Source: Asterionella formosa
Taxonomy: Eukaryota
Assembly (NCBI GenBank): GCA_002256025.1
Contig: NKIB01015057.1
Span: forward strand, 1-38,531
Length of the DNA: 38,531 nt
Direction: 5' to 3'
Positions within the stretch are counted from its first letter, which is position 1. Each line of letters starts with the position of its first letter. A program made the translations under genes and the position numbers. Below the pieces are notes generated by a model. The model had not been told where the DNA came from. It did not search any database and saw only the letters and a program-made list of their open reading frames with translations. Shown here in pieces: positions 1 through 38,149 of the stretch.

Positions 1-1075
1 AACATGTGATTTAAGGAGTTCGCTCTTGGTGATTGGCTTAATTACCGAAGAGAGCAGCAAAGGGTGGTCGATTCAACCAATGCGACGATTATCCTCTTCC
101 ACATGGGTAAAACTCTTGATTTTTTGATTTTTTATGTAAGACTTCTTTGCGAAACGGTAGCTCGTCTATGAAATAAATTTCTGCGTATATATATATATAC
201 CGGTATACACCACCAAGCAAACTTGATTTCCACCGGATTTACGGTACTAGCAACAGGTATTCCCTGGTAGGGAATGCCAGGTACCTGGCACCTTGTATGG
301 AGTACCAGGTAGGATGAAAACATTCGCACCCTGTAGATATAAACAATGATATACCGGTATTGATACATATGTACCAGTACGGTCGTGTTGCGATATTCTT
401 GGAAGAAACACGTGGATTCTATGCTACCGGTATACAATCTGAGAATACCGGTAGACAAGATCATTGTGTGTTCGAACATGGACATCATACCGTTGTATTA
501 TTACCGCTATATCGGTCGTAGCTACGCATGTAGGTAAGACTATTACAGTACCTGTTACGGGTAGACGAAACTACGGATGGTATCGGTACCAGCAAGTTGC
601 AGTAATTTTGCTGAAACTAAAGATTTAGTTATCTTTATCCCAGATTAAAATGATAGTTCAAGCAAAATGACTGCAACTTGCAGATCCAATACAGTTTAAA
701 GTTGAAACAGATAAGTCAAATGAATCTTGTTTGTATCCATAATCAGCCCAGTCATGATCTTTTGAGTCTAGTAATGGACATGGAGCAATCTTTACTCATA
801 TATGAATCAATCTTTGAGTCTTGTTGTGAACATGAGTTGATTTACTCATTTATGAGTTAATTTTGTTTGTTTGGTTTGCTAAAAATTTCTATAAGCTCAC
901 TTTGTTTGGAAATACCAATAGAGTAGAATCTATCTACTACCAACAGTTGCCTAAATTCACCGTGATCCTTCAATCTGCTGCCCACTAGCACCTAAGTTTC
1001 TGAGTATATCAATATATTTACAATTTTCCAATAAGTCAAACTCCTTTCAGGTTAATCTACAACTTCTCTTCTAAA

Positions 1076-1096
1076 TGGTTATGAGCCCAAGCGCTT
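1076..1096 (+). promoter_or_regulatory. Copia-type primer-binding site complementary to the 5' half of initiator tRNA-Met
   Basis: TGGTTATGAGCCCAAGCGCTT. Its reverse complement AAGCGCTTGGGCTCATAACC follows the iMet D-arm/anticodon-arm layout (compare the Drosophila copia PBS GGTTATGGGCCCAG). It lies upstream of copia gag/integrase fragments. Confidence 0.65.
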
Positions 1097-1543
1097 ATAC
1101 CTGTCCATTCTTCACTTGGGTTCTCCTGCTCCTTTGCTCCCAGAGCCATTTCCTAAAACCAGTCCATTTTCTTGTCCCAGAAACAGAATGCACAATTAAG
1201 AGGAAATGCTAAAGGTATCATAGTCCAACTATTCCACTCACACATTCTATCTTTCCCGGTTATACAGCCAGAATCAGAGAAATAGAAAGTTATGTATACT
1301 ACAACATCATGAATCAATACTTGATCTTATTTCGTTATTTCGGTTGCAATGCTTAGGATCAAAGGGCTTCAATGGAATACAACGGCATTGGATTGAAGGG
1401 TAGGAACAAAGAACACAAATGTATCAATAATAAAATAAAGATTGCAATTTAAAGCGTAAACAACAATATGATAGAATAATCATTTCAATCATTCCACTCG
1501 TCATCGCTAGTATTTCATCATTGTTGCAGAAATTGGAGTGAGG

Positions 1544-2990
1544 ATGACTGAAGAAGATGATAAGCCAAAGTACATTACTTTGGCCAGTACATTATCCTAC
1601 CAAGAAATTTAAATACAGGAACCTAATAGAAACAATACATATAATTATTAAATATACGTAGCCAAAAGCGTTACTATTTAATTTACGATGGCATTTATCA
1701 TACTTATTAGACAATATATCAAAAAATTATGATCCGATGATCATAATCCTAGTATGATGGATCATAGGAATATGATGGTTTTTATTTGCAGACGAAGATT
1801 TGACAAAAGAATAGATGGAGTTGGTGAGACAAGATGATGAAGCAAAGCATTGTCTTATTATGTCGTGCAGATGCAACGCTTTTGCAATCATTGAATCATA
1901 TGAAATTGCCTACCAAATGTTTCAAGCTGCCTCTTAAAGACCGATACGACTTAAAGAAGACAAAAGATTTGTTAAAAGCAACAACCAAACTTTTTGAATT
2001 TTTTTAAATGATATCAAGATAAAGATGAGGAAATCCCTACCTTTGGATTGTCGAAATGGAACGATTGAACAGAGAAGTGGAAAAGTGCGAAAATGGGTCA
2101 AGACACAGCGAAGAGCCAATGCAAGCGACCATATTACTAGCAAGACTACCAAAACGGAGGTATGAATCAGTGATAATATCTCTAAATGGGAAGATTGTTA
2201 CAAAAGGACTTGACAATAAGGATTTCATTGCTGAGATCATTGGCCATTTTGAGATAGTTGTGGAGCCATTCAAAAAGCATCTAAATCGCGAAAATCAAGA
2301 TCAAAGAGAGAACAAGGAAAAGGGAAATATTTGGCTCTTAATACAATAAGTGGAAAAGGTGATGGAGAGCCTTTAAAGGTGAATGCGACAAGTGGGGAAG
2401 ACAAGGCCATGGAGCAAGAGAGTGCAGAAGCAATGGCAACAGGAATAACAGTGGAGAAAGCAAAAGAAACGGAAAAACCGAAGGTGAAGTGCTACAGCTG
2501 CGTCGGATTTGTACACATTGCAAGAGAATGTCCAAAGAAGGAAGAGTCTGATATGTTTGTTGGTATGACAATCCATGGAGCTGATATCCGGGAGGATGGC
2601 CAATATTAGGAGACAGTAATGGGGTCACTTTATTGATTTAAATTTGTCAACGACAAATCAAGGAAGAAGTCATGGGATTTTTATGGAGCATGAAAATATG
2701 GCATAACAAAGGTACTGAAAGACATTTTGGACAAGTTAAAGACTGCTGGGAATCCAGTAAAATATCTACGGTGTGACAATGTGGGTGAGCATATGTTTGA
2801 ACTACGAAAAATATGTGAAGGGGAATATGGAATTGAGTTTGATTACACAGCTCCCAACACAACACAGCACAATGGAAGCGTGGAAAGGATGTTTTCAAGT
2901 GACGCAAAGCGTGCGCTGCTGGCAATGATGATGATATCTGCTGGGTGGGCAAAAGAGATGCAAGCTAGAACCAAGAATAAAGCTGCCGCA
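1544..2990 (+). mobile_element. Degenerate, internally deleted Ty1/copia remnant (gag, zinc knuckle, integrase core)
   Basis: Gag-like fragments at 1787-2349. CCHC knuckle CYSCVGFVHIARECPK in ORF 2331-2609. rve integrase motifs YLRCDNVGEH and EFDYTAPNTTQHNGSVER in ORF 2727-3128. Frameshifts and stops present; no RT seen. Confidence 0.8.
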
Positions 2991-3044
2991 ATTTTTTTTA
3001 AACTACTTCCACACGAGGAAGTGACTACCAACCAACCCTTTCCA

Positions 3045-4888: not shown

Positions 4889-5308
4889 GAATGGCTTAGT
4901 GGTTAGTCCATCCTCTGCAGTGGCAGGTTTGATTCCTGTATTCTCCACCTGTCTTTTTCATGTACCGGTAGTCCCTAGGGTTCCGGAGCGGTGTGTGGCT
5001 GAAGAATAGACAGGTCCTATTGTACTGTGTGTACGCATGAACAAAACCAGATGATCCGACAGAACTATCAGCCATTTTCCCCAAAAATCAGCACTGCAAA
5101 CAAAAATATAAATGCATTGATTTTGTCGTCGCTGATGGTTATATTTCATTGCAAAATCGATCGATCGAGGTGCAAGCCTCATCAATTCATATTTGCCTTG
5201 TGTACGTAGAAGTTGCGTCAGTCTGTCTTATATTAGTACTACACGTAATAGTATCATACCTGGCTTTTGATATTTCATGCAAACTTCACACGCTGTGCAT
5301 TGTGAGAA

Positions 5309-6499
5309 ATGCTTCGAAAAGTCCTGAAGACTCGATGTTCCATTCGCCCACGACACCAATTGAGGTCCAGCTATCATGAAGTCTCCTTTGCTACATCAGG
5401 AGAACTTATCGAAGTGTTGGAATATCTTGAAGTAGCCACAGAGGATGACATGCCGTATCCAGGTCACTCCCCGTCAGTTCGAGTTGAAATGTGGGAAACG
5501 CCATGGAATCCTGCCGACGTCAACACTGTTCAGGGAAAGTATGCATCGCCTTATCCAGATAAAAGTATGACGAGGGAATTATTACGCATGAGTCGGTACT
5601 TTCAGGGAAGAACAGTTGCCGGCTCGGAAGGATGGGGACGCGTGACAGATATTTGCGGCACAGCGTCGCATCTAAACGTTGGAGACGTCGTGACGGTAGG
5701 CCTTCCTGGGCTTGGTACATTACGGTCGAGTCTTTGGGTTCCACCTGCTTCTTTGATTCCTATTACTCGAGGATTGGAGCTGTCAACCAGGATTGGTCCG
5801 CAAGCAGCTCTCCTACCACAGCTCGGAGGGACCGCAATTCGCATGTTGAGAGATTTTTGTCACCTTCAACCGGGGGACACTGTCATTCAAAATGCCGGAA
5901 ACTCAGGGGTTGGCCTCATGGTTAGTCAACTTGCCCGGCAGCTTCATGGAGTGCAAGTAGTTAGCATGGTGAGACGTGGTACTAAGAACGAAACGGAATG
6001 GGCAGAGCTTGTGCAGCATCTGACTCAAACAGGAAAGGCTGCGATAGTTGTTGCCGAAGAAGATATTGCTGATCGCGACGCCTTGAAAGATTTCATACTT
6101 AACCTACAACAACTTTCCATGTCAAAGAAGCTTCCATCTTTAGCTTTGAATGCAGTGGGAGGAGACAGTTCTTCTACACTATTAAGCTGTTTGGACCAAG
6201 GTGGAACATTGGTCACTTATGGAGGCATGTCGCTGAAGCCAGTCACAGTAAGGACTCCTCAACTCATATTTGGAGATATTCGCCTAGCCGGTTACTGGCA
6301 TAGCCGCTGGATGGTACAGTGCAATGACAAGGACAAGCAGTGTATGGTCGACGAATTGGTCGATACAGTACTGGACAAGGAAGTTCAGTGCCCTCCAGTC
6401 AACCTGTTGCCGCTACGAGAAATTCTCACAGGTCTCCACTTGGATACAAATCAAACTGGAATACGAAAAAAGTTATTGTTGTCATGTCGCGAACGATAA
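5309..6499 (+). CDS. MECR: Mitochondrial-type trans-2-enoyl-CoA/ACP reductase (MDR family, ETR1/MECR-like)
   Basis: 396-aa ORF with PWNPADVNTVQGKY, VIQNAGNSGVG, LALNAVGG and GTLVTYGGMS motifs. The basic, Arg-rich N-terminus resembles a mitochondrial transit peptide. Confidence 0.9.
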   Translation: MLRKVLKTRCSIRPRHQLRSSYHEVSFATSGELIEVLEYLEVATEDDMPYPGHSPSVRVEMWETPWNPADVNTVQGKYASPYPDKSMTRELLRMSRYFQGRTVAGSEGWGRVTDICGTASHLNVGDVVTVGLPGLGTLRSSLWVPPASLIPITRGLELSTRIGPQAALLPQLGGTAIRMLRDFCHLQPGDTVIQNAGNSGVGLMVSQLARQLHGVQVVSMVRRGTKNETEWAELVQHLTQTGKAAIVVAEEDIADRDALKDFILNLQQLSMSKKLPSLALNAVGGDSSSTLLSCLDQGGTLVTYGGMSLKPVTVRTPQLIFGDIRLAGYWHSRWMVQCNDKDKQCMVDELVDTVLDKEVQCPPVNLLPLREILTGLHLDTNQTGIRKKLLLSCRER

Positions 6500-7145: not shown

Positions 7146-7528
7146 NNNNNNNNNNNNNNNNNNNNNNNNNNNNNNNNNNNNNNNNNNNNNNNNNNNNNNN
7201 NNNNNNNNNNNNNNNNNNNNNNNNNNNNNNNNNNNNNNNNNNNNNNNNNNNNNNNNNNNNNNNNNNNNNNNNNNNNNNNNNNNNNNNNNNNNNNNNNNNN
7301 NNNNNNNNNNNNNNNNNNNNNNNNNNNNNNNNNNNNNNNNNNNNNNNNNNNNNNNNNNNNNNNNNNNNNNNNNNNNNNNNNNNNNNNNNNNNNNNNNNNN
7401 NNNNNNNNNNNNNNNNNNNNNNNNNNNNNNNNNNNNNNNNNNNNNNNNNNNNNNNNNNNNNNNNNNNNNNNNNNNNNNNNNNNNNNNNNNNNNNNNNNNN
7501 NNNNNNNNNNNNNNNNNNNNNNNNNNNN
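7146..7528. other. Assembly gap (383 N)
   Basis: Run of n characters. Confidence 1.
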
Positions 7529-8769
7529 CAGAATATACTATTATTTGCCAAATTTTTGCTGAGCTTGAACAAGCATATACATGTTTGGCTGCTAGATTGA
7601 GAAAAAGGGCTCATTCAACATCCTGATGGCAATAACTTTTGATCATACCCAACATGTAGACAGTCTCAAGATTGCCGGCCCATGCTAAAAGACATCAATG
7701 CAGCAGCTGCAATGACAGCAGTATCGTGCTCTTGAATATTACGAGATGCAGTGCCCAACAACTTTGTCTGGAATCATTCGTAGCAGACTACTTTTGAGCT
7801 GAATCTTGAGTGGCACTACAACTATATTAGGCAATGAAACAGGTACAGCATTGTTAGGATCACCACAAAGTTTCTTCCAACAAGGCAGCTTGTCAACATG
7901 TTGTGAAAATACCAATGTTGGATTTCTGTTAACTGAACTTTAATGTAGTAATTCTCTGAATCGTTTCTTTGCAGAATTCAATGAGGCACTCTTCAGAGAC
8001 TTTATAGCGATGGGTGGAATCGATTTTAGAAAAAACTTGTAAAATAATTGGATTACACACAATTACATTGCTAGTATCATTTCAATGTTTCCATTTTAAA
8101 CTTGAGATAGAAAATAGTTTAATAACATTAGTAGACTTGCCAACCTTGGATCTTCCATAGACTTAGTTTTACATTCTCACTTATTTCTTGATAAAGCATC
8201 TTAGGGCAATTGTAGACGTGATCATTATCTGATGATGAGTCATCGATATCATCGTTCATTTTTTCATTTTATATTCATAAACTACCGGTATGTATGGTAC
8301 CCATCATACAAACAATGATACATGCACACGTAACTACACTCTACTGTGAGTCTATTTCTATTCACTGATAATTTGGGCGTGAGATATGAAAAATTTAGGA
8401 TTTGGTCGATGCAGACAGGAAACATATGAAAATTTCAGCTATTGATTTCTTGACCAAGAATAAGTGACTTGTTTTGATATTTTCAACTGCAATCGTCTTT
8501 GGTCTTTGGTCGATGCGGTGGAGATGCTCTAACATAGCAGATTCTTTCCTACTCATTATGATGATTTCAATCTCTCTTTGAGACTCAATTTGAAAACCTT
8601 ATTGTTACTTTTATATTATTTTATATACATTGTTGGTTAGTTCGTCTTTCTCTCCTGAATAAAAAAGCTATACATGTTGAAGACAAAAAATTGGAATTTG
8701 AACTTCAAACATTTCGTCATGTGCCAGTCACAGCATGAAAAATTCTGTAGACACAGATCAGTCTGGACT

Positions 8770-9154: not shown

Positions 9155-9352
9155 TGAGCAATTAAGGTTGGCGCGAAGTACGTTGCGATACGTAGCAGTA
9201 CGGTACAGCAGTGACTAGTCGTTATATCACGCAGACATTGGCAATAGAGTGGAAGTGTCTGTTAGTTAGCGATAGCGAAAACAATTAAACCTTTTAATAC
9301 ATCTTTACCTAAGTAAGTCACTATGTCGGACTTCACACAGCGATTATGATTT
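9155..9352 (+). repeat. 5' LTR (198 bp) of the CoDi-type copia
   Basis: Aligns to 15208-15441 with about 13 substitutions and one 36-bp indel. Confidence 0.92.
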
Positions 9353-9658
9353 AGTTTATAAGACCCATTGTAAAAAGCGAGAGCGATGCTAGCGGAAAGA
9401 GGATAAAGCAAGCGAAAAAAGGAATCGAATAGTGAATGCGATCTTGTCAAAGTGTCGATATTTCCAGATACACCAGCGACGGCTGGATGCGGGCTCTGGA
9501 AGCACAGCATGACAACCGCATAGAGGAAGGTAATCCTTCTCAATCCCTATTAGCGCAGCGAGCGGCCAAAGTGAGACTGATCATCTCATCAGGCATTAGC
9601 GAAACATGAAGCCCCTCATGTACTAACATTTTATTCATGTACAGAACAGAACAACAAG

Positions 9659-11088
9659 ATGGCCGAAGTGGCAGTTGCTCCGATTGTGAATGAAGGTTCA
9701 CCAATGATGTTGATAGGCGTTGACAAAGTACTTCAGGTGGTTGGATTTGAATGCAGGCAGGGTTGGGCTGATTCGAAGATTTCCGTTTCCTTGTGGAGAA
9801 GGATATCCGTGATATGGCAGATGAGTTTGGCAAGTGTACCCAGGCAAATGGACGGATTGTCTTTGGACTAGGACGCACTAAGAAGCTGACTGGTGTTATG
9901 CATTGGATTCAGGACTGTCATAGAGCAAGCGACATTCCAAACCATGAAAATTTTGATGAAGAAACGATGTATGCAGCCCTCAGTTTGGCTCAAATTCGTT
10001 AATCCGACATTGAATTGGTTACCACCAACTCAAAGGCAGCTGATCCAGGAAAATTCAAGGATAAACATAAATGGCCTGAATGGGATAAGGCGTTCATTAA
10101 CTTCCTATCGGTCATCCCTGGGGTAAATGGCATTCCATTGTCATATGTTGTGCAAGAGCTAGAGAACCCCACCCCAGGAACAGAGTATGCTACATTCAAC
10201 GAAAGGATGATAAATCGAGCATTGCTTAATGGGCATGATTACATAGCCGATACAAGGCGAGTGCACAATCTTATTATTGGGTTCTTGCAAGGAGAAAACA
10301 CTTAGAACTGGATACGCAACATTGCCAAGTACCAAGATGGCAGGCGTGACATGATTGCTTTGCGTTGTCACTATGCTGGTGAAGGAAACTCCACTAGGAG
10401 AATAGCTGATGCGAAGCGGATCCAAAATGCCTTGCACTACAAAACTGAACAAGCCATACCATTCAACAAGTTCCTAGATTCGTTACAGCGGATGTTTACC
10501 ATTTTTGAGGAAGAAAATGAACCATTAACTGAGAGAGCCAAAGTCGATGAGCTTCTTACCAAAGTGCAGAACTCTGCATTAGCGGCAGCAGTGGCACAAC
10601 TAAGGTATCAGTTGAATACAGATGGGATCACTTTTACTGTTGCTGCTAACCATTTAAACTCCGAGATTGCTTAGACCCCGGATTATCAATTGTCTTGAAA
10701 AATTAGTGCAGATACTACTGGTGGTCATGGCGGGCGAAACAGTGGACGAGGAGGAAGAGGAAATGGACAAGGACGACACAGGCGAGGCGGACGCAGTAGT
10801 CAAGAGAAAACCAGTACTGGATATTAGTCTACAGCGGAATGGGAGAAGCTATCTTTTGATGAGCGTGACAAGATTCGCAAAGAAAGCGACAAGAAGGGAG
10901 AACAATGTGGAAGCAAGCAAACCATATCTGAATTGACTACAAAGCAGCTAACAACGGCAATCATTAGTTCAATTCAGAAGGCAAATGCAGACAATGGTGC
11001 AGAGGATACACCAAAGAAGTCAAATGCTAGTCAAGCAGGAAATGCATTTGGAGGGAAGGAAAGCGCAAAACGAAGTAAAACAGAATGA
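9659..11088 (+). pseudogene. Copia gag (frameshift near 9750-9790, several in-frame stops)
   Basis: DPGKFKDKHKWPEW, GVNGIPLSYVV, LRCHYAGEGN, an RGG-rich tail, and an end at GNAFGG...KTE-TGA. Confidence 0.85.
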
Positions 11089-14000: not shown

Positions 14001-15060
14001 TCTTATGTATATCCCATGATCCACATGCAACTATGAAGGGTATCCAAGCAACATTTAAATTGAAAGACAACAAGATTGAAAAACCAGAAAATTATCTTGG
14101 CTGGGGCAGAGCTCACACAAAAGATCATTAATGGAATGGAATGCTGGACAATGTCATCGGAGCAATACGTTAAAGCATCCATAGCAAATGTCGAAGCAGC
14201 ATTGAAGTCAATCGGTCAGAGATTACCATCCAGATGCACCACACCGATTCAAGCCAATTATCGACCGGAGCTGGACACAGCAGCGGAGCTAAAATTAGAA
14301 GGCATCCGCTATTATCAAGAGATGATTGGAGTCTTGCGGTGGGCGATAGAACTCGGTAGGATTGATATTGCAATGGAAGTGTCAATGCTGTCTTCTCACC
14401 TCGCGTTAAGTCAAGAAGGACATCTTCAACAGGTTTATCATATCTTCGGATTCTTGAAAGCAAGACCTAAGCAAACGTTGGCATTTGATCCCCATCACCC
14501 TGATATTGATGAATCGAGATTTGTGAAGTGTGATTGGCATGATTTTTATCGAGGGGCAAAAGAGCCAATTCCAAAGGACATGCCAGAAGCCTGTGGAAAT
14601 GTGGTGTCAACACATTGTTTTGTTGATGCTGATCATGCAGGCACTTGTATAACAAGACGCTCAAAAACCGGTATCCTACTCTTTGTTAACAGGGCACCAG
14701 TAGTGTGGTACAGCAAACGCCAAAATACGGTTGAGACATCGACATTTGGAAGCGAGTTTGTTGCCATGAGGATCTCTGTGGAGTTAGTGGAGGCTCTGCG
14801 CTACAAACTGAGAATGTTTGGAATACCAATAGAAGGGCCAACCAACGTCTTTTGTGACAACGAAGCAGTTACCAAGAATAATATCTTCCCGGAATATACG
14901 CTTAAGAAGAAACACAATTCAATTGCTTATCATTGTTCAAGAGAGGCAGTAGCAGCAGGCACAATCAGAGTGACAAAAGAGGATGGAAAGACAAACTTGG
15001 CTGATGTGCTGACTAAGCCACTGGCACAAGCAACCAAAGATTTTTATGTGACTGATTCAT
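11089..15060 (+). pseudogene. Copia pol (PR-IN-RT-RNase H), disrupted
   Basis: ORF pieces 11098-11664, 11742-11960, 11999-12268, 12365-13045, 12972-13238, 13217-14131 and 14076-15167 carry consecutive pol motifs. A 20-bp tandem duplication at 11948-11986 breaks the frame. Confidence 0.92.
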
Positions 15061-15207
15061 GTATTGATATTGAACACTGCCTAGGTTCATCAAGCATCAT
15101 AAGATGCTTCGTTACCTCCTGGACCTGCAAGACATGTGGCTTTGAAAACCAGGTCATAGATTTGTGACAAGCAACATCTTGGTCACCTCCATATTACTCG
15201 AGGGGAC

Positions 15208-19028: not shown

Positions 19029-19284
19029 ATTGAACCATTGATGCTAATTACTCACTGCAAGTGAAGTTGACGGAGTTTTGCATTTTTGTCATCAGCTCCT
19101 TGTATTCACTACTCTCTCTGGTTTGCTAGAGTTTAATTGCTACTAAATGTTTTGTTATCGAAGTATCTTATATTGATCTTCGCATCACCAGGAGGCCTAC
19201 TAAAAGCAAATCTGCTCCATCTGCAATTCACCTGTTTTTACCGGCATGATATATATATATATGAATAGCTGATGAGGATAGGAG

Positions 19285-21215: not shown

Positions 21216-21672
21216 AGGAGTATCATCAGTGTACCTGATACTGGTATAGACTACCAGTTACCCAGCATGTATATCACTGTATGATATGTATGAGTGCAGT
21301 GCATCATGTGTAGTCATCATAGTATATGTTAAACAGTTAGAGCAGCCTGAATACCGGTAATCAGTCTTGCTAGCAAGCTTCTTGATATTTGAAACGCACC
21401 AGTTGATTCATTGGACTATAATTGAGTACACAATTCTTATGACTCATAATAACCATGAATACTATCACACATTGTTAAAGTACTATTTAGTTCACATTAA
21501 TAGCTGCAAGCTTACTCGTTCAACTATTTGTAGTGCTAGCTTCAATGATAACTTGACTTGTCTTACATTTTAAGACTCCAAACTAAAGTTGAAAACAGAT
21601 TTCACACTTGAGTTGTTGTTAGGAGCTAAAACGAAAACTCCAAAGATGAACTTTTCTCAAATTGTTGTCCAT

Positions 21673-23986: not shown

Positions 23987-24479
23987 ATACATATAGTATA
24001 TTCTGGACACAGCTATACTACCGGTATTTGACATTACAGAAAAGGACGGAAGCAATGGGGCCATGCCACGCGAGCCCTGGTACCAGGTCCTACTGTCTGT
24101 AGGTACCAGGTACCAGTACTGGTAAGTACTACAAATAAACACTCAATCGAATCGAAGGAGTCGAAGCTAAGGCATTAATATAGCTACAACGCTACTATTA
24201 AGTTCTAGCTTTTAGAGTTGAATCGAACAACCAAGAATCGGCAGCTAAGACAAGGCGAGAAGACAGCAACCACGCGAGGTTATTCTCAGTAGAGGAATGC
24301 AAGGGGTGAAGGGCACAATTCTTTGAAGCAAATTCAGAGAAGCAGTCCAAATAAGCATCACCAAGCCTTTCGCAATTTATGGTCTAAATCATCCACCCTA
24401 AGTCCCTCCCACGGCTAAGCGCAACTCGCCTGCCACAGAACCGGACCGAACCCGGAGTTTGGGGACAGGACGCACACAT

Positions 24480-25112
24480 TACTTTGCCAACCTGAGGCGA
24501 AAGGACCATTGGGCTTCAAACAACAGGAAATTCGAACCGTTGCACTGTGTTGTTAGGGGTGATAATGAGTGGTGAGAAGTTGCCACCATTCATTGTACTT
24601 ACAGGAACAAGGGATGGACATATTGCCAGGCAACTGGAATTACTAGACAACAATCAACAACTTTTCCCGGTCGGTATTAAATATGCTTGTCAACCCAAAG
24701 CTTGGGATGATACAGACATATCTTTACAATGGATCGAAAAAGTTTGGCAACCATTTGCGTTGGGAAAAGACGGTGAGCCTATTCACCTCCTTCTTGTGGA
24801 TGATTTTACTGTCCACAAGGTAGGACGTTGTGTTGATGCAATTAAAAATTCGGCACTGAGGTTGACTTTGTCCTCCCAAGCTACACATCTAGACTTCAAG
24901 TGTTGGATGTAGGAGTTAAAAAGCCCTTCAAGGACTACATGAGAGGATATTGGGAAGAATACATGGTTGCCAATGTGGATAATTCCAAGGTGCAAAGGCA
25001 CCACATTGCACAATGGGGGTAGAAATGGCATGGGCTAGGCAGAGTCTCAATTGAAACAATCACCAATACCTGGAAGAGCATTGGATTTGAGGGCTTTGCT
25101 GCTGTTAACTAG
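24480..25112 (+). pseudogene. pogo/Tc5-like DDE_1 transposase, C-terminal fragment
   Basis: RCTVLLGV..SGEKLPPFIV, QPKAW and LLLVDDF..H, then after a frameshift TSRLQVLDVGVKKPFK. 5' end missing. Confidence 0.85.
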
Positions 25113-25374
25113 TCAAGTAGGATCGGATTATTTGATTATCTATTAACACATTTAATTTTAGTGAAACAATCATTATCGTCAATTAAATTCAGGATGGCAA
25201 ACCCTAATAGGCAAATAAATTAAGCTGATGACTACAAAAAACCCAAAACGAAGTGATTCTTATGTTGAAAATGCTAATTTCTAATATGATTATTAATATT
25301 CTAGTGTAGATTGGATGAAGGACTTGAAAACTTGTCCAGTTTTTGTAACATCTATTCCTGAATCTGGATATCCT

Positions 25375-25766
25375 CAAGAAGCCGGAATGAACAAACTCCA
25401 AGGTGGTTGTGACTTTTTGCCCTTTTGGTAGCATTTTCACCAAAGTCATTGCGCTCAATAAGTTGAGCAAACTTGTTGACAAACTTGTCACTTTTTTTTC
25501 TTCAAAGCTGCAATATTCTTGCCAAGGAAACCAACTGTGCACAGCAGTTCTGTCCCATTAAGGATCAGAACAGCCTTGATACCTGCCTGATCAACTCCAT
25601 CAATTGGGACCACCACTGCCTTGAACCGAACACAATCATTTGGCCTCACAATTGCCTTACAGCAGGCATGCTGCTCACAGCTTCTTCCATTGGTGGTACT
25701 TCTGAGGCCAAGGAATTCGCCATCATGACTGTCTTCCGCAATTCTCATGTTGCGCATATGTGACAA
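25375..25766 (-). pseudogene. Accessory ORF convergent with the pogo transposase (GRSCxxH motif protein), frameshifted
   Basis: GEFLGLRSTTNGRSCEQHACC...VRFK...CTVGFL. It lies between the transposase and a putative TIR. Family resemblance is from memory of stramenopile hypothetical proteins. Confidence 0.5.
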
Positions 25767-25910
25767 TATTTTACAGGTGATGATACTTTACAGGGAACAG
25801 TAGGGTACCTGTAATATACGAAAATACATACCAATAAATAGAATACGTTTATGTTGTGTTATTTTTTCTGTACACAGGAAATATTTGCGAGTGTTGTGCC
25901 AGATGTACAA

Positions 25911-25965
25911 GGGGGGGGGGGGGGGGTGGGGGGGGGGGGGGGGGGGCAACCCACTTTTTACGGTA
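25911..25965 (-). repeat. Poly-G tract (25911-25946) abutting a putative pogo/Tc2-type terminus
   Basis: The minus strand reads TA|CCGTAAAAAGTGGGTTGCCCCC. TA followed by CCGTA is typical of Tc2/pogo ends. No partner TIR was found. Confidence 0.45.
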
Positions 25966-27113
25966 TTCTAGTATACTACGGTTCATATTAGCTCTATACC
26001 TAAAGAATCCTTATGACCTTATACTCGGTCTACAGATGGAGAAAGACGAAACGGACGAAACAGTAATTTTGTCAAAGTTAGTTCGATAGCATTATGGTAG
26101 TCCATATCATTTTATCAGTCATTGTCTAAAGCGGAGAAATATTACAATGTACCTCTGGTAGTCATTCAATGGTGAACAGGCATAGTATGGTGGCAATGTG
26201 TATGTTGAACCTATGGATTTATAGCAGACAGCCAACTGCTGCAACCAGCAGTAAAACCAACAGGGTAGTCTATGGAATTAATTTATAGAGCACAGATTAC
26301 ATAATAGAATCAGACATTTGGTAAACATTTTTTGTCTCTGTGTCCAGCGACAATTGAGTTCATTGTGATTTGCAGTGCAGTTGTTCATAAAGAGGTTTCG
26401 TTATCCTTTACTACTTTACATGAGTTGTTGCAATGGACTTTGCATGGTATGTAAAGCATCAGTCTTTAAACTTCCTTGCAAAACAAAAAGGCTTGTAGCA
26501 TTTATGAATACAAAGTTGAAAAGTCTCCTGACAGCCTAAATACTGGTAGTTTTGAAAAGTGACCAAAGACGGAGGGGAAAGAGCTATGAATGACTCTGGA
26601 CTTGCTTACCCAGTAGACTACGCTGGGAACAATTGATTCCATGGCTGAGGGTAAAGTACTGGTGATGACTTAGTATATAAGCAATAGTTTGCTTCTGGTG
26701 TGGAACTGCCGGAACCCAGTACCAGGTACGACGATCTCTAGAAGCTACCACGCAGTAGCAGAGAACCAGCAATTTTTTAAACTACTCCATCAGAAAGCGG
26801 CTCATACCTAAGCGAGTAGCTGTAATGTGTCAACTGTTTCCTGCCATGCTCACCCCACGGAACGAGAAAACTGAGTAGAAATAATAGTTCATGTAACGGT
26901 CGCGATCATCTAAAGAAAATTAAATTAAATTGTTATCAATGCCAGAGGGCGAGGAGACCCAGTGGCTTTGTTTGGATTGTGGGTGCACTCCCCTATCAAC
27001 TGTGTACAATACGACGTCGCCAATAGAGTAGGCATTCCATCGTTAGGAGCAATAATCAATGTAACAAGTACTACTAAAATTGGCGAGAAAATTGCATTTC
27101 GTGCATTTTTCGC

Positions 27114-27488
27114 CTACTTTTTGCTCTTACTCAAACCAGCATCGAGCAAATCATCGAGCCCGGCCACCACCTTCTTTTTCTTTGGCTTGACTGGTTCACT
27201 AGCAGCGGCGACTGGTGCCGTCTTTGGTGCATTGGGATCGAACCCGGCCAGAGATGAAAAGCATTCCGTAGGATCGGTACAAGTTGGATGCTTGGCGGTA
27301 ACGTGGAGTAGAAGAGTGGGAGGTTTGACATTGACCATGAATGTCGTCCTACAGAGAGTGCACATGAACGCGGAACTGTCCTTGGCTGCCTTCGCGGACG
27401 CCGCTTTCCTTTCTTCATCCGTTTTACCCACTTTCTTTTGATTCCTCTCTCTTGCCGCCGCGGATTTCTGTGCGTTTCCTCCTCCCAT
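27114..27488 (-). CDS. Small zinc-binding protein, At2g23090/ZNF706 (4F5, zf-met2)-like
   Basis: MGGGNAQKSAAARERN N-terminus, CTLC...H...KHP zinc finger, and a Lys-rich tail; 124 aa. Confidence 0.88.
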   Translation of the reverse strand: MGGGNAQKSAAARERNQKKVGKTDEERKAASAKAAKDSSAFMCTLCRTTFMVNVKPPTLLLHVTAKHPTCTDPTECFSSLAGFDPNAPKTAPVAAASEPVKPKKKKVVAGLDDLLDAGLSKSKK

Positions 27489-27785
27489 CTTTGCAAATTT
27501 CCGTTCGTCTCTTTTCGATTCGCAAATGTGCTTTGGAAGTATTCAAGTATTACTCCAAGTAATATATTTTATGTAGCGAAATCAAAGAATCATGCGAGAT
27601 TCGACCAGAAAAATAACCAAATGACATTTCAAACGACGAGACTTATTATCCAACGGACGTGTGGCCACAATGGCACGATTGGAAATACGGACGGCTTACA
27701 TACCGAATGCAAAATGCAAGAAGAAGAGAAGCAACTAATGGCACTGGTACTCCGTACCATTGTACCAGGTACCAGGGTACGCCAT

Positions 27786-29404
27786 GCTTATTTGTCAATC
27801 CTTGTGTGTAACTCGTTCTCTAAGTCGACACCAAAGTACACAATAAGGGTTAGTCAAGTTCTCTCATTGTTGAGTTCTGATATATATGATATAACACTAA
27901 CCCTATATTCATCTGTATTGATGCGCAAGATTGCTTACTCTCCCACACCAAGGGAAAACCTTTTACCTTTGAAAAGGTTTGATGCAATGAATATTAATTC
28001 GTTAGGTTTGTTGAAAAGTAACTGTACCATTGGCATATACTTGAATAATAGAATAAGGACCTCGTCCACAGTCATCCAAGGTAGTAAGTAGGATTATCCA
28101 ATAGGATTAAAATCTCATCACCAACTTTGTAATCACAAGAACGATGATGAAAACTATCACAACATAGACATTTGTCAATTATCACTTATCGACATTGATA
28201 TCCCAATATCAATTGCATATCTGTAATCAAAGGAATATTTAATATCATATCATATTGGAAAACCCAACCATATTCTTGGTGAAATAGTAGGCAATGTGCT
28301 AGAATTAGTAGTTCGAGCTGCATATGATGCAGCAAAAAATTTTGTACGTTTTGACATGCTTCACATATGCTTGCAATATGTTCCACTTTTGCTTTTAATT
28401 GAGTGTAATAGAAATGTGTAGAAACTGTAGCATTTCATCTTGTCATACCCACATGAACTAATATCTGATGATACCAATTAATAATAGGATCCAATAGTGA
28501 TGTATGAATAGCAATATGCCAAGTCTCTCCTGGATTCTTCACAAAACATATTAAATGTATATAATAAAATTGAAAGAGGGAAATTTTAACGATGTGGCTG
28601 TTTGTTGATTGAGAATCTTCTTTGGCGGAGACCTCTTGATCTTCTGGATGAGGTATTATGAGTTTCAGGAACTTCTTTAAGGTTTTGAGACAGGCAGCGA
28701 AGTCGATCATAAACATGTTGAAATGTTTTATTGAGTATTTGAAATGTTTTATTGAGTATAATCATGGCATCCACTGATGCTGACTGTCAGAGATATCATG
28801 AAGAAGGTAATCTTCCAGCCACATCACCATGACTTTTTGTTGAGACTGTTATGAGACTGAGCATCTGGGTGTATTGCAACGCTCATCCAGTCAGACAAGA
28901 CGATATCTGTGAGTCACCTTTTGTAGCAGTAGGTGAACAAGCAAGGAATCTGCTGGACTGAAGGTATATGTGTTAGCAATATCACAGCATTTACTGAAAT
29001 CATTCAACAAGCTTCCACTGAGTGTTCACTGATCATATCTTCGTTGAAAGACTCCAAACATCGACCTGGTAGGGATACACAAAGAGGTCTGAATCTTGAT
29101 GTTTAGGTGTTGTAACCCTTCATCCTTCATCAATGGGACCACTGGAACTTGAGAGGACAGTGTATCAACATGATTATAAATTCTAATAAGACTCTTTTTG
29201 AATTCAAAGTGAAGTATCTAACTAGAAGTAGTAGTATTTGTTGAATATATGAGCTTATTTGTTAATCCTTGTGTGTAACTCGTTCTCTAAGTCGACACCA
29301 AAGTATACAATAAGGGTTAGTCAAGTTCTCTCATTATTGAGTTCTGATATATACGATAAAACACTAACCCTATATACTTCTGTATTGATGCGCAAGATCG
29401 CTCA
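27786..29404 (-). mobile_element. Internally deleted Ty3/Gypsy element, copy 2 (LTRs 27786-27937 truncated, and 29210-29404)
   Basis: LTR pair homologous to copy 1. Integrase zinc domain WYHQILVHVGMTR...CEACQ and GPY motif GPYSIIQVYANGTV...RINI..IKPF on the minus strand. PPT at 27938. Confidence 0.88.
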
Positions 29405-29428
29405 CCAGGTACCCTGTACCCTGGTACA

Positions 29429-30041
29429 GGAAAATTCCCGTAGCGCACGTTTTATGTGCACCTTTTCAGCTTTGACGCACTCCCTATGAATCATCTCATG
29501 CCTGCCGGACGAGATAGGCCAGCTTTTGATGAAAATTAAATTCCTTAATTAATTTAGGAAAACGTTCTTTATTGACTGATGACAATTTGCAGTGTCCGTC
29601 TCTGAACACAGCTCGGATTTGCTGACTGATGAATGGGTTCAAGAAACCGTCGTCTTGCTTTGGAATAAACACAGGAATCGTACTACCTTACTACATTTAG
29701 AGCTTTCTGACAATGACTAGAATTCGCTGACAATTACAAAAATTTGCTGACTATGACAAGAAACTGCTGACTACGACTAGAAGTTCTTACTGATTGGTGA
29801 ATTCCATTGGCAAACCATCATCCAGTTGCTGAATACCATTAACAGCAGTATTAGTTGAACATGATTTCGATGATCAGAACACGACTTGGATTTAATGAAT
29901 GATAATTTATCATTGAAGAAAGTTCTTAAGATAGTTTGGAATGAAAAGCCAGTCTATCTCGTCTGGCAGGCATGAGATGATCCATTGGGAGTGCATCGAA
30001 ACTGAAAAGGTGCGAAAAAACGTGCGCTACCGGAAGTTCCC
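29429..30041. mobile_element. Non-autonomous DNA transposon/MITE with ~100-bp imperfect TIRs (MULE-like layout)
   Basis: 29429-29530 (GGAAAATTCCCGTAGCGCACGTTTT...ATCATCTCATGCCTGCC) is the approximate reverse complement of 29940-30041. Internal 20-bp repeats at 29705-29785. No TSD visible. Confidence 0.8.
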
Positions 30042-30484
30042 GGTGACTATGGCATACTTCTTGATGTATGTGTTTTTGGAACACCTTGGGAGGAAATGCT
30101 TTGTATTCCTCGTGTTGCATGCTGGAGTAGTGAGGCTCCACCATCCTCATGTGTTTGCCCTCTGCAACGTCATACTTTAGCAGAATCTGCACTTCAGTCT
30201 CGTCCTTCGAGGGTAGGGGAAGAATCGAATTAGATTGCGGACAATTGGATTTACTTGCCTGTCATAGGAAAATGCTGCACTTTCCTCAACAGCAAAATCA
30301 ATTTGCTTTGCAACAGCATTCCGTAGTTTATTACCACTAAGGTTCGTACAAAAGTATTGTAAGACACCATTGAGCATTCCACTTGCATGCTGTACACTTC
30401 ACTTGGTTTCATTGTTGGCAGCACCTTTAATGCCAGAATATCATTTATCAGGAGTGGTTTTGCAATCTCCCAAAGTGTTGACAT
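30042..30484 (-). pseudogene. Decayed two-repeat helical protein ORF, probably transposon-associated
   Basis: Two similar modules, WEIAKPLLINDI...MKPSEVY...YNTF and ILLKYDVAEGKH...EEYKAFPPKVFQKHIHQEV. Frameshifted and cut by the MITE. Confidence 0.5.
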
Positions 30485-30577
30485 GATTGATTGTTGTGTC
30501 TTTCTAATCCTTCCTCGCTCTGTTTCAGGTTTTTAAAATAGTCAATCATGTGTTGAAAAAATTCATTGTTTCTGTTG

Positions 30578-30837
30578 CCCATGTCCATAGAATGAACTTT
30601 CCAGTTTCAAGACAGTCATCCATACCAAAATCCGAAAATAGCTAGTATGCATCGCAAACAAAAACGGCAAGAGACAGAAATCAGGCGACTCAATCATTCC
30701 ATTTCTCATGGCCATGCGCATAGAATGCACTTTCCAGTTGTGTCAAGACAGGTAGCCAGTCGCGCCAAAATACGAAAATAGTGATGCATCGCAAAAAAAC
30801 GGCAGAAAACAGAAATCAGGCAACTCAATGATTTCAT
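30578..30837. repeat. Tandem pair of ~130-bp units
   Basis: CCATG..CATAGAATG.ACTTTCCAGTT...CAAGACAG...CCAAAAT.CGAAAATAG...ATGCATCGCAAA...ACAGAAATCAGGC.ACTCAAT at 30578-30702 and 30711-30837. Confidence 0.88.
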
Positions 30838-32981
30838 AGCAACATAAAAGATGGATTTCACAAATCTGGCCGAAACAAACAAATCAAGCAACAATGTAAA
30901 CCTGCGAACACTTATTCCAGAAAAACTGACAAGACCATCTGCTTTGGTAAAGGTTATTTCTTAGTACCGGTACTAATCAGATTTAAATATTTACCGGTCT
31001 TTATTGGAGATAAGAGCTAGATTTGCTACCATAAACTTCGTCTGTAAATAAAAAGTATCATATTTACAAGATCACAGGTATCATACGCTAACTTGCACGG
31101 TGTTTTCGCCACATGATACTTCTTCCGTTATGTGTATGATAATTGTATAGATATGTATATGATCATGTCAAGCATACTAATAATACACAGTACACTATAT
31201 AATCATCAAAACAATATCCTATGATGTACATTCGTTCATCATATATCTATCTTAACATAGTAATCGTAATTCTAATCAAAGTGAATGTTCAAAATATGGT
31301 GAAATAAATTGTAATTTTACTATGATTAGAAATAATTTCTATCATTAAACCTGCTAACCGCCATTTCGGCCGCCATCTTTAAACTATGCCAGCGTCATTG
31401 CTTGTACTTTGATTCCTGCAACATGATGGCAATACATCTGTTTGACTGAGCCTTGCCCTTGCTTCCAACACTTCTCACGTCAACTGCAGACAAATCAATT
31501 GCCCTCACTGTCATTCAACTTCAAAAGGAATTGTTTGCCAATCACTCATCTACGTTGTTCTGATTTCCCCTCGTATCACTGTTTGCTCATTTTTCCTCAT
31601 GTGTCTTACTTCGGTGTACATTTGATTGCCCGTTTGCTCTTTTCCATAGATCCTACCGAAATGAGATGCTGGTTCATTTACAATTCATTTTGATATCCTA
31701 ATCAAAGTGACAATGAGAAGCAGAAAGTTGCTAGTTATGTATTACTTGTTTACACCACAACAAATGCTTCCCATTTTGGATTGACTTACCAATTATTGAT
31801 GTATTTTCTAACATTTCTGAATAATAAAAATGTGTCAGTCCAGTATCGCATAAGTGCACATCAGCAAATCGTTCCGGCGATGCCATTTATAACTTGCAAC
31901 AAATAATGTTTGATTACAATTATCCTGGAAGATAAAAACCAGCCACTGCTCATGAGTCAGCATGCAAGCACTTATCAATTTTTTGTCCACATTGGTGGTT
32001 TCCCACCAAATGCAAAACGAGCAATTGAATCCTTCGAGAACGAAAAAACAATTTAGTCTTTCTGAACCCAACAATCGTTCATCATGGCATGTTCCCTCGA
32101 CGTACCATAGCTGAATTCCATTCCTTCCTATTAAATTTTCAATCCCTCTAAGCCGCAATATGTCATATCATTGTGTTGTAGCATCACTTCAGTTTCCCTT
32201 TGATGTGGCTGATGTGCTCTTTCATGCCAGGATGTGTACCGGTATGCATGACAAGTAACTAGATGCGATAAACATGATTTCAAATGTATTAGTCATTTAT
32301 ACATTGATAAAAAGTTGTAATGCATAAATATATATACTTTTGAACACTTTCATAGTTCAAAGACACAATTCATATCGCACATCATGTGTATGCTTCTATC
32401 AGTTAGCTAAGCTAGTTCATAATTCAAATACATACAATGCATGAGAATATTATTATTTTCCACGAGCTGATTTACTGTTTTTGAATTATTCCTGCATCAA
32501 TTCTTGTACCTACAAGTCAGTGATTCAATTAAGCCCCTCAATTAGCGGGATTCATACAAAAAATTTATTTGTTACAAATCATTTAATATTTAGATTATTC
32601 ATTTTCTCATATCATTGACACCGTTTATCATATGATAAATATGCTTTGTTCAAATGTGTAGGATACACTTATCAAACTTTATGAATAACAGATCATACTT
32701 TCTGGTTAGAAAAGATTGCCAATAAATTAGATCACTGAAAACACTATTTAGCTCATTTGATCTTACTTTTAAGATCATGATATCCTAGTTCTTAAAATTA
32801 ATTTTGATGATTATTTTCTCATATCAATGGCATCTTTTATCATATGATCAATATGCGCGCATTTCTCGAACAAATAGGATATAGAGATCAAACTTAACAG
32901 ATAGTACTTTTTGGTCCTCGTAAATGATGCATGCTTGCCAGTAAATATCGGCACTAATGGCGGGCTGCTTTTATAAGACCG

Positions 32982-33176
32982 TGTTATTGCATACCCTCCA
33001 TACCCTATAGATACCAATGTTAGGTTGCTTGTATCATGAGAACATGTTATTGAGGCATACCCTCCATCATCTATAGATACCAATGTTAGGTTGTTGTTTG
33101 TACAAAACCATGTTATCGCATACCCTCCATTACCTATAGATACAATGTTAGGTTGTTTGTAAAAGACTGCGTTATT
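32982..33176 (-). repeat. Tandem ~60-66-bp repeat (3 units) within ORF 32811-33203
   Basis: Core GCATACCCTCCAT-N4-CTATAGATAC(C)AATGTTAGGTTG, translated on the minus strand as (NLTL)VSIxxGGYA(S)IT three times. Confidence 0.85.
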
Positions 33177-34131
33177 GGTGTTCCATGTCAATGTTGTCAT
33201 CACATCATTGGTAGTCCGGCAATGGCTTCTTCCATGTGTATGTTATTGTCACATCATCTCTGTTTTTACCGATTTTCATTTGTGTTGAGTTCATGAATTA
33301 TCATGACAACGAGCTTTTTGAGCATCAAAGCGACAAGGAATGGAATGCACAGAGGTTGTGCAGGCCCTGCACAACCTCTCAATTGTTGCTGAGATGGGTC
33401 GCCGACTCCTGTATTTCCAAAGAACAGTAATGTCTTTTATTTCCTGGACAAAGATGTTTCAAAGCGATTTTTAGAGGGTGCAAGGAGGCACTGACAAGGA
33501 ACAGGCAATGATGTGCGTGATGAATGAAGTGTCAAAACGAATTGATTCGATTTGTTCACAAGGAAAAGGACAATAAAAGTTGGACATGACAACAGTATCT
33601 AGAATCTTGCTATCATTGTTGAAACATCCTCCACATTGATGAACCATGGACGATGAAATTGAAGGCTTGCATACAATATAGCAGAACAAATCACTTCACT
33701 ACAATGCGGTCCACAATGGGGAACTACAAAGTGGGGAAAAATGTCTCTCCAGTTTGGCTAGATTATCTGTCTCATCTTCTTAAAAACTTGGGCCAACAAT
33801 TTAATCTTTGTTTTGCACCCCACCTCACATGGGCCATGGAGCACAATGAAGATGAACCTAGAAATAGACCAGTACTAATGCGCAATAAAAATGATGAATA
33901 TATAGTAGAGTGCATTTCATGCTGACATTTTCGAGATACTGGAACTACAACAAATGATGTGTCAATTTGATGACAAAATTGATGTTCTAGATAATGCATC
34001 CAACTTATACGCTTGTTTACCTATTCGATAAGTGATCAGGGAATTCCAAGCAGCAACCTGATGGATTGAATTCGTTTACTATGAATGAATAGAAGCTGTG
34101 GTGACAAGTATTTCATGATCCACTCAACCAT

Positions 34132-34189
34132 CCTTGAACAGGGACCTTGAACAGGGACCTTGAACAGAGACCTTGAACAGGGACCTTGA
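34132..34189. repeat. 13-bp minisatellite (CCTTGAACAGGGA) x4.5
   Basis: Four full units, one with a G>A change, plus a partial unit. Confidence 0.95.
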
Positions 34190-34825
34190 TTTCCCAGGAT
34201 ATATAACCCACAACTGCAAGATTGAATTTAGTCACTGCCTTACAATTAACTCACCGCTATTTGACATGTGAATATGTGTGTGAAACTTGATACGATTTTA
34301 TGATTTGAAGCGAGTAAAAGTGTAATAGAGTAAGGCGGGGAACCATTATAACTTGGCTCCCATGTTCTAGATGGCAACAGATGGAGATATGAGAGGTCAA
34401 TCTATTAAATAAATTCACATTAAATGTTTAATGAATTGGTTCTCGAATAAACACTAAACCCAAGCTAGAATGTAGTCAGCGCAAATCGTTGCTGTGTGAA
34501 TATCTTAACAATCGATGAAGCAATGAGGGAACAACAGCTCCCTCATCTCGATGCCATGAATCGGCTACGAAGTTAAGGAGCGCTTCGCGTCGCTTCACTT
34601 TAGTGGATACTCGATGCAGCTTTCGTCGTAGTTGAAATCGAAAATACTAGATTCCTGCACAATGTCATGACGCAATAATACAAGAATATGATGCATTGGT
34701 ATAGGTGCTCCATGATTTACTGTGAATCCCGCATAAAGAATGGAGGAAGCAATAATATAACTGCTCGCTTTGCAAAAAGCAGATTGGGAACCTTATGTTT
34801 ATGCCAACATTCCCTCGGTAGAACG

Positions 34826-35323
34826 TCATACTCCTTCCCTCGACACAAATGCAATGATAGCTGGGGGGTTTGCGCAAACTAACCCTTGCAGTGGCCCAAA
34901 GAGCTTTGGACTACCCTTCACCTGAATCGCCTTCAACTCTTCCCACGTAAACGACTCCCATCCTTCGCACTTGTTTGGCTCCATATTTTTTGGTCGTTTC
35001 TCATGCAAGGTACAGTCGCCCATCATAAATATTGTAACATAGTGCTTATCTTCTGATTCCATGATATCATTGGTGACGTGTCCAAGCTTGAGATGAGTTA
35101 TAGAAATTCCCATTTCTTCTTGTACTTCTCGTTTCGCACACTCCTCCCATGACTCCATCCATTCCAGATGCCCACCAGGGAGAGCCAACGATCCTGCACC
35201 ATGGGAACCCTTGCGGATACCAGCAAAGAATTTGCCTGGATCTTGGGGATCTTTGACAATGACGCCGACGCCAACGCGAACATGTTTCTTGGACGGTTGA
35301 GACGATAAATCAGAGGCAGGCAT
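34826..35323 (-). CDS. Nudix hydrolase, NUDT15/MTH2 (plant NUDT1)-like
   Basis: RVGVGVIV, RKGSHGAG, Nudix box GGHLEWMESWEECAKREVQEEMGI, KHYVTIFM and NMEPNKCEGW motifs; 165 aa. Confidence 0.92.
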   Translation of the reverse strand: MPASDLSSQPSKKHVRVGVGVIVKDPQDPGKFFAGIRKGSHGAGSLALPGGHLEWMESWEECAKREVQEEMGISITHLKLGHVTNDIMESEDKHYVTIFMMGDCTLHEKRPKNMEPNKCEGWESFTWEELKAIQVKGSPKLFGPLQGLVCANPPAIIAFVSREGV

Positions 35324-36172
35324 GATGCTTGGGTTGTTCTGTTAAGAATGCAATACTAATCTAGTAATAAGGATAATTATAAATGTGGTATACCAGTCCT
35401 TGGCTGCTTCGAGCTATTACTATGGTGCCAGGGTAGAAATATCAAAAGTACCGGTATTACAATTTAGCCTGCCGTTGATACTGGCGAGTACTAAGCTAAA
35501 GCTTCGTTTCTCTCATACTCAGATATCGCTTTCTCTACTCTTATTAGGCAATTTCTACTAGTCTAGTACGAATTACCGTAGTGCTCTATACTTTTGTCAC
35601 GCGTGTACAAGCGTTAGGATTGAAGACAATGCATGTGAATTCGATTGCGAGACGACCAATTCGAACCAAATGTACTACCGGTACAGGTGTACGAACATAC
35701 TTTTGTTAGTCGACCGGATGTCCGGAGTCGTGATCGAGCATTGCTGGAGCAATACCCTTCTCGGTGGCTACACACACATGTACGAGGCTGGGATGGCACT
35801 CGTAGGGTGACCTTCTCGCAGCGCCGGATACTCGCAGGCATGAGACCACCTCGTGCGGGTATTGCCTTCAGCAATACCGGTAGCTCAGGTCGGCTTAACC
35901 CTAGTTTGGAGAATATATCGCTAGGGTTGTAAAAACGGCGTGGAACAGAGAGTTTCCTACTATGAATCCCCATGATTCAAGTGTCCATTTGAATATTTGA
36001 ATTAAAAAGGAATCGGTGCCAGACTGATAGAATTCCATTTGAAAAAAAATGATATTTAAACATTAATACTATATCTCCATTGCTGAATGTAGACACTCAT
36101 AATTCCTAAACTTGGAATTGCTTGTCTATATAGCCTAAAAAACAAAAACAAAAACAAACCACACGAAGCACC

Positions 36173-38127: not shown

Positions 38128-38149
38128 TAAGACGCCGTTTACGGCACTT

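Follow-up and report, generated by a model that had tools for sequence, protein, structure and literature searches.

Cut-and-paste elements of the Tc1/mariner/pogo type insert at TA dinucleotides and duplicate them. In cyanobacteria, the palindromic octamer HIP1 occurs far above expectation and is spread through coding and non-coding DNA alike. Here we address the palindromic octamer TACCGGTA, which occurs 13 times in a stretch of Asterionella formosa DNA (contig NKIB01015057.1, positions 1 to 38,531; "the window" denotes this whole stretch of 38,531 nt). The DNA of the window is eukaryotic. Every copy of the octamer (13/13) reads TA-CCGG-TA, i.e. a TA on either side of a short insert, and we consider it likely that the copies are excision footprints of a TA-targeting cut-and-paste transposon. 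All statistics on the octamer cover this one 38.5-kb window.

Footprints of Tc1/mariner elements consist of 2-4 nt from either end of the element, enclosed by TA dinucleotides, and excision of Sleeping Beauty is reported to leave TACAGTA or TACTGTA (PMC6943129). The Tc1 footprint is given as taCATGta, i.e. TACATGTA (PMC3520976). The octamer resembles the footprints of Tc1/mariner/pogo elements in that a duplicated TA surrounds a short fixed insert at what would be a former TA, and in that longer and shorter forms stand beside the canonical one. It differs from those of Sleeping Beauty and Tc1 in its inner bases, CC|GG, which would stem from CCAGG-type ends. As a candidate footprint it is also set apart from the known ones by its density of about 1 per 3 kb in this window and by its rank as the top over-represented non-homopolymer 8-mer.

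An identical octamer has been described in oomycetes. In Phytophthora infestans it is the "high-confidence" promoter motif M94, whose sibling M93, TACATGTA, is listed with 4,150 promoter occurrences (PMC3597505). It is likewise motif-9 of Seidl et al., reported to precede 1,284 genes, with a three-fold enrichment at those for RXLR effectors (PMC3520976), and streme-5 of Plasmopara halstedii reads ATACCGGTAT (PMC10031896). As far as the available parts of these reports describe them, M94/motif-9 shares with the window octamer the inverted-repeat structure and the abundance in intergenic DNA, and both M94 and M93 have the footprint form TA-NN-N'N'-TA and are enriched near RXLR and other effector genes. 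The oomycete motifs are read there as transcription factor sites, whereas the window octamer shows an insertional origin through presence or absence of 6 bp. The idea of a Tc1 footprint was weighed by Seidl et al. for TACATGTA (their motif-1) and was set aside for the abundance and conservation of the motif, according to the text available (PMC3520976). Our literature search found no paper linking the octamer to diatoms, the only co-mention being a Phytophthora paper; judged by title among the matches listed, which were primer or construct matches, it was not tied to transposon footprints either.

All 13 exact copies reported by the first-pass annotation were recovered (13/13). They are listed below as candidate scars, with no strand assigned.

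198..205, TACCGGTA, candidate scar; interrupts a (TA)n microsatellite; residues ungapped and unchanged in homolog P0005
352..359, TACCGGTA, candidate scar; P0005 reads N-N-G-I, an ungapped point variant
425..432, TACCGGTA, candidate scar; P0005 is two residues shorter (LYT--IES), a 6-nt difference that is not of the simple TA form
446..453, TACCGGTA, candidate scar; S-T-G-I retained in P0005, ungapped
4963..4970, TACCGGTA, candidate scar; first ATG of an enoyl-reductase-like open reading frame (ORF) 346 nt downstream
8283..8290, TACCGGTA, candidate scar; intergenic
21352..21359, TACCGGTA, candidate scar; about 100 nt from a TA/CCWGG-rich stretch (21232-21262); depth bin about 8x single copy
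24019..24026, TACCGGTA, candidate scar; two abutting TA-flanked element ends 55 nt to its right
30965..30972, TACCGGTA, candidate scar; low-copy (about single-copy) intergenic DNA
32237..32244, TACCGGTA, candidate scar; exact copy
35449..35456, TACCGGTA, candidate scar; Nudix ATG 126 nt downstream; about single-copy DNA
35676..35683, TACCGGTA, candidate scar; three independent empty-site (TA) homologs
35875..35882, TACCGGTA, candidate scar; one empty-site (TA) homolog

The number of copies lies far above expectation. In 100 dinucleotide-preserving shuffles the octamer was present 0.14 times on average and at most once, and a third-order Markov model predicts 0.64 copies. Among the 8-mers of the window, TACCGGTA ranks first in enrichment once G and C homopolymers are excluded, and among all TA...TA words it comes first as the single outlier (P = 2.5e-13). 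The longer palindromes noted before at 196-207 and 30961-30976 were also confirmed. The sites are not evenly spread, with four of them inside 248 nt (P = 0.0007-0.0018). The described absence from the four host coding sequences and from a 6.3-kb copia element was reproduced, there being 0 copies in these roughly 10 kb (3.7 kb coding sequence and 6.3 kb copia). Under uniform placement this has a probability of P = 0.019, a comparison of low power.

The first-pass annotation had in its headline likened the behaviour of the octamer to that of HIP1, proposing that an unknown process creates or maintains it in eukaryotic intergenic DNA. In the corresponding explanation, mismatch repair or gene conversion would be biased in connection with a methyltransferase recognising the CCGG core, and would drive sequences toward the palindrome. 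Indeed, like HIP1 the octamer is a palindrome far above Markov expectation (13 versus 0.14-0.64); it is centred on CpG, and 13 copies are intact although the observed/expected ratio of CpG in the non-coding blocks of the window is 0.42-0.67. However, a substitution-driven sink should raise the frequency of one-step neighbours. Among the 12 classes that differ from the octamer by one mismatch, TACCAGTA/TACTGGTA is the single elevated one (6 copies versus 1.74 expected); the remaining 11 stay at background (together 12 observed versus 8.9 expected). Since these neighbours are not raised, the HIP1 analogy is not supported. Unlike HIP1, which occurs in genes too, the octamer is confined to non-coding DNA, lies in a eukaryotic window and arises beside a duplicated TA, by insertion of 6 bp rather than by substitution, as detailed below. 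We regard a HIP1-like process as highly improbable here.

Evidence for the insertional origin comes from relatives of the sites. Contigs of four runs were aligned to 18532-38531 and the best-supported rows were considered; the runs containing this stretch carry the labels algae, freshwater or lake metagenomes, and in run X3 single-copy depth is about 30 over the host genes. In addition, spurious ORFs spanning the sites were translated and searched against a large protein set derived from the gene calls of many assemblies. At site 35676, run X17 provides an RNA contig (depth 609 of 609) that lacks 6 bases and has TA where the window has TACCGGTA; DNA contigs of runs X2 and X3 retain the octamer. 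The spurious ORF 35617-35976 (minus strand) spans sites 35676 and 35875, and its homolog P0001 (ENA), which is 94-97% identical over 99%, lacks exactly two residue pairs, reading ELLL versus ELPVLL in the window at site 35875 and YTCST versus YTCTGST at site 35676. The missing pairs are those encoded by the inner six bases of the two sites. The pair at 35676 is also missing from a more distant homolog, P0006 (JGI; 76% identity, 37 residues; EPTLL--QVYEH), and RNA contigs of two studies join ..GCAATA directly to the bases that follow site 35875 in the window.

P0001, the more distant P0006 and the RNA paralog thus all lack the octamer at 35676. A single gain in the window copy accounts for this more simply than two or three losses would, and by parsimony the empty state at this site is ancestral. 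Site 198 lies in a pure TA microsatellite and deletion of six bases restores an unbroken TA run. Insertion is favoured there, since a 6-bp insertion explains the site in one step, where substitutions would need four. Taken together, the alignments show that filled and empty sites differ by precisely the 6 bp that turn a TA into TACCGGTA. As homologs carry a plain TA and site 198 interrupts a (TA)n run, the octamer arises as a 6-bp insertion at TA.

Not all comparisons are of this kind. Six sites could be compared in total, yielding two clean empty/filled pairs (35676 and 35875), one unclean 6-nt difference (425) and three shared sites. The latter four belong to the four-site cluster, for which the only homolog found was P0005 (ENA, a 582-nt contig), which is more diverged. 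For the ORF across site 4963, a search of representative proteins returned unrelated weak matches only and no usable homolog. Site 35449 is also present in run X2, of which a DNA contig covering 34610-35504 aligns with 0 gaps.

Several further observations were made on this part of the window. A DNA contig of X2 (29985-31301) and one of X3 (26213-27786) are nearly identical to the window, with 2 letter differences each, and both are exactly 6 nt longer than the window; the extra nucleotides could be further scars in other strains. A paralog of 35461-35754 is abundant in a polyA RNA library, with a contig depth of 423-609 versus 36-60 for ALG6 and Nudix, and is also abundant in a metatranscriptome. 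Compared with this RNA paralog, the window copy has an extra 128 nt (35755-35882), bounded by TA. For 35461-35754 there was neither a match to an Rfam family nor a convincing ORF. No Rfam family reached its gathering score anywhere in the window, none was found at E up to 1 in 35300-36200, and the predicted folding of 35457-35900 is unremarkable (z = -1.47).

The octamer might also be nothing but a part of ordinary repeats, such as solitary inverted-repeat ends, remnants of miniature inverted-repeat transposable elements or a repeat consensus, and be copied along with them. This would fit the location of sites 21352, 24019, 32237, 35676 and 35875 in depth bins of 4-100x single copy, the fact that TACCAGG words mark real element ends, and the retention of site 35676 in X3 at a depth of about 4x single copy. 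However, beyond 2 nt the 13 copies share no flanking sequence, and in a BLAST search within the window 0 of 39 non-self matches cover a site; for both reasons the copies do not form one repeat family. Membership of all copies in one ordinary family is what the first-pass annotation had named as refuting it. Moreover, the octamer is missing from other copies of the repeat in which 35676 and 35875 lie, and sites 30965 and 35449 lie in approximately single-copy DNA. One scan with a repeat-core pattern yielded 10 metagenome loci; eight of these (17.8 kb) match the window in repeats only and contain 0 sites, as does the whole set of 10 (23,048 nt, including two unrelated GC-rich contigs). Simple copying with repeats is thus very unlikely, in our estimation, to account for the octamer.

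Excision offers a route to the observed form. An element of the IS630/Tc1/mariner/pogo superfamily with CCAGG...CCTGG ends would insert at a TA and thereby duplicate it. At excision, cleavage of the non-transferred strands by the transposase would fall two bases within the element. One flank would then retain TA+CC and the other GG+TA, and end-joining would seal these to TA-CC-GG-TA, a net insertion of 6 bp at the former TA. If insertion and excision recurred, preferentially close by and at TAs supplied by earlier scars, scars would accumulate in non-coding DNA and longer stretches rich in TA and CCWGG would also arise. We infer that the scars were made by excision and not by another insertion process, that excision involved a 2-base stagger, and that activity of the element family was frequent enough to leave about one scar per 3 kb.

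The words that occur in excess beside the octamer fit excision footprints. Words other than TACCGGTA are raised only in the cases of TACCAGGTA and TACCAGTA/TACTGGTA. The excess of the latter, which the first-pass annotation had taken for CpG-decay variants, is real; the decay reading is not needed, because these words are equally readable as four end-bases between two TAs. Likewise, the 9-mer TACCAGGTA is indeed over-represented (4 copies versus 0.36 expected), though less as a variant of the octamer than, for the most part, as an element end (TA followed by CCAGG...) or a longer scar. Stretches rich in GGTA/TACC can be split at TA and then read as CCAGG prefixes and CCTGG suffixes; around the four-site cluster such words amount to 8-9 per 120 nt versus 0.86 expected. 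The features concerned are given below, again with no strand assigned.

236..600, GGTA/TACC-rich stretch around the four-site cluster, from word counts
303..311, TACCAGGTA, candidate longer scar or solitary element end, from sequence
24104..24124, run of CCAGG, CCAG and CTGG pieces separated by TA, from sequence
26720..26728, TACCAGGTA, candidate longer scar or solitary element end, from sequence

Candidate sources of CCAGG-type ends reside in the window. TA|CCAGG ends were found on one element with Pfam DDE_1 matches and on two non-autonomous families.

24083..25811, plus strand, degenerate pogo-like DDE_1 cut-and-paste element; TA at 24081-82 and 25812-13; Pfam DDE_1
24070..24084, minus strand, second TA-flanked end family (GGTACCAGGG..CGC); abuts the DDE_1 element at the same TA
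27763..29426, plus strand, high-copy non-autonomous element; bounded by TA|CCAGG... and ...CCTGG|TA; 17/24 end positions complementary

The DDE_1 matches cover 24496-24909 (E = 3.2e-9) and 24846-25022 (E = 2.8e-5). The extent of the element fits a block of about 20-fold depth (23868-25868), corresponding to about 20 copies, and a diverged copy is present in the polyA RNA library. Its ends start with CCAGGT on the left and, in reverse complement, CAGGT on the right; their alignment scores 36 versus 23.6 +/- 4.6 in shuffles (maximum 37), which is suggestive of paired ends, not strong support for them. The GGTACCAGGG..CGC end has two matches in the window, 24070-24084 (minus strand) and 27768-27782 (plus strand), versus 0.19 expected. 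Ends of a third family, in which TA precedes CCWGGTGAGCG..., occur at 29405-29426 as well as in the metagenome loci L005 and L009, and their flanks differ beyond the TA. The element at 27763-29426 has a depth of 100-400x single copy. It was also the only hit when the window was searched for intact TA-CC...GG-TA elements with complementary ends, and was no better there than control anchors, and a scan of 23900-26400 for inverted repeats detected no clean long inverted ends. A footprint-family statistic over all 1,024 5-mer ends, using inserts of at least 5 nt, placed CCAGT 9th and CCAGG 11th, behind families of TA microsatellites, and is only moderately supportive of CCAGG-type ends, not clean.

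Within the high-copy element, the repeat at 27786-29405 (also at 19283-19563 and 21022-21214, and in loci L001 and L003-L009) has a unit of about 1,467 nt at 100-400x single-copy depth. In four metagenome loci its halves are joined in the order opposite to that in the window, an arrangement that points to copies in tandem or in circular permutation. Relatives of 86-96% identity are found in metagenome contigs of ENA (labelled "marine") and JGI.

A number of points weigh against excision scars. Three of the six comparable sites are ungapped in the diverged homolog P0005 (198 and 446 retained, 352 as a point variant), and the 6-nt difference at 425 does not have the clean TA form. The evidence for empty sites consists of protein translations and one table of contig alignments rather than the DNA of the homologs, and among the homologs and the best-supported rows of the aligned contigs no allele or copy with a transposon still in place was found at any of the 13 sites. 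The window contains no intact autonomous element and no long clean inverted ends; the end score of the DDE_1 element is only marginally above the shuffles, the largest of which exceeds it, and its right end starts with CAGG, one C short, so that this copy alone predicts a slightly different scar. The scarcity of one-off variants could reflect selection instead of youth. Furthermore, the data come from a single 38.5-kb window in which the copies at 4963 and 35449 precede two of the four host genes by less than 350 nt, and the same octamer is reported in oomycetes as an expression-correlated promoter motif (PMC3597505, PMC3520976, PMC10031896).

Alternatively, TACCGGTA might be kept by selection because a dimeric transcription or chromatin factor binds it; it would then be the same element as M94/motif-9 of Phytophthora and streme-5 of Plasmopara, possibly a scar that was co-opted. 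The word is a palindrome of very sharp specificity (13 exact copies, against background levels for 11 of its 12 one-mismatch classes), and position -1 shows a flank bias, T being found in just 1 of 26 cases (P = 0.006). Copies are located 346 nt and 126 nt upstream of two host genes, three of the four cluster sites are kept in the diverged homolog, and over-representation upstream of genes is what the oomycete reports describe. However, only 2 of the 13 copies precede a host gene by 500 nt or less, a count from a small window, and the others are found amid transposon debris. Sites are gained or lost as exact 6-bp units at TA and not by substitution, and one of them sits inside a TA microsatellite. 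No factor is known for the octamer, and none is named for it in the available text of the oomycete reports; the text of a Phytophthora protein-binding-array paper does not contain "CCGG", and M94 is not among the motifs that the available text names as functionally tested. We therefore judge a selected factor site unlikely. Among the three candidates considered by the first-pass annotation, i.e. a DNA-binding factor, a methylation- or repair-driven mutational sink and transposon footprints, it is the last that is favoured by the 6-bp units at TA, the footprint architecture and the CCAGG ends, at the expense of the HIP1-like headline.

The remaining content of the window comprises four host genes and mobile elements.

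5306-6499, gene for an enoyl-reductase-like protein, host coding sequence
17436-19028, ALG6/ALG8 gene, host coding sequence
27117-27542, minus strand, zf-met2 gene, host coding sequence
34829-35341, minus strand, Nudix gene, host coding sequence
9155-15442, copia element of 6.3 kb, RVT_2
about 21672-23986, minus strand, second, decayed copia-type element with RVT_2 and Pol_BBD fragments

RNA contigs cover the Nudix and zf-met2 genes. Of the three best Atlas clusters for the ALG6-like protein, one consists mostly of Bacillariophyta and two mostly of Ascomycota, which neither supports nor contradicts a diatom origin. The reverse transcriptase of the 6.3-kb copia had no match among viral contigs, and the decayed copia is bounded by direct repeats of 87% identity (21672-21897 and 23757-23986). 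Several unclassified repeats are also present, and repeat blocks of 20- to 400-fold depth extend over 19199-21199, 23868-25868, 27870-30537, 35207-36540 and 37875-38531. Adjoining the right long terminal repeat of the 6.3-kb copia on its outside is an open frame of 274 amino acids (15443-16264, minus strand), whose sole match, Pfam Hormone_recep, is sub-threshold (21 bits versus a cut-off of 23.5). Long open frames rich in P, T and Q occupy 36134-38130 (plus strand); they have no Pfam match, lie at 6-100x single-copy depth, are covered by a metatranscriptome contig and are probably part of an unclassified mobile element. The assembly has a gap of 383 N at 7146-7528, and the contigs of the aligned runs break at a G run of about 37 nt (25911-25947).

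Palindromes over-represented in intergenic DNA are commonly interpreted as regulatory sites or, in bacteria, as signatures of repair or methylation. If the copies in the window are excision scars, TACCGGTA instead traces to a mechanical by-product of transposition. The mechanism is textbook; what deserves attention is how dense the scars would be, at roughly one per 3 kb of this window, and that the octamer is identical to published "promoter motifs". It is possible, though we put this forward tentatively and hold it to be rather doubtful, that the oomycete motifs TACCGGTA (M94/motif-9) and TACATGTA (M93/motif-1) and the window octamer are one phenomenon, i.e. fixed scars that saturate intergenic DNA to HIP1-like densities and were left at excision by TA-targeting transposons whose ends read CC...GG or CA...TG. 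Were this to hold for oomycetes, two of the most abundant published promoter motifs of Phytophthora would need re-examination, and their link to effector genes and expression would reflect transposon-rich neighbourhoods or later co-option and not an ancestral regulatory code. Presence or absence of 6 bp at a TA would provide a simple diagnostic that is applicable to other genomes. Such scars would form a countable fossil record of cut-and-paste activity where no element remains, and counts of elements alone would underestimate the impact of transposons.

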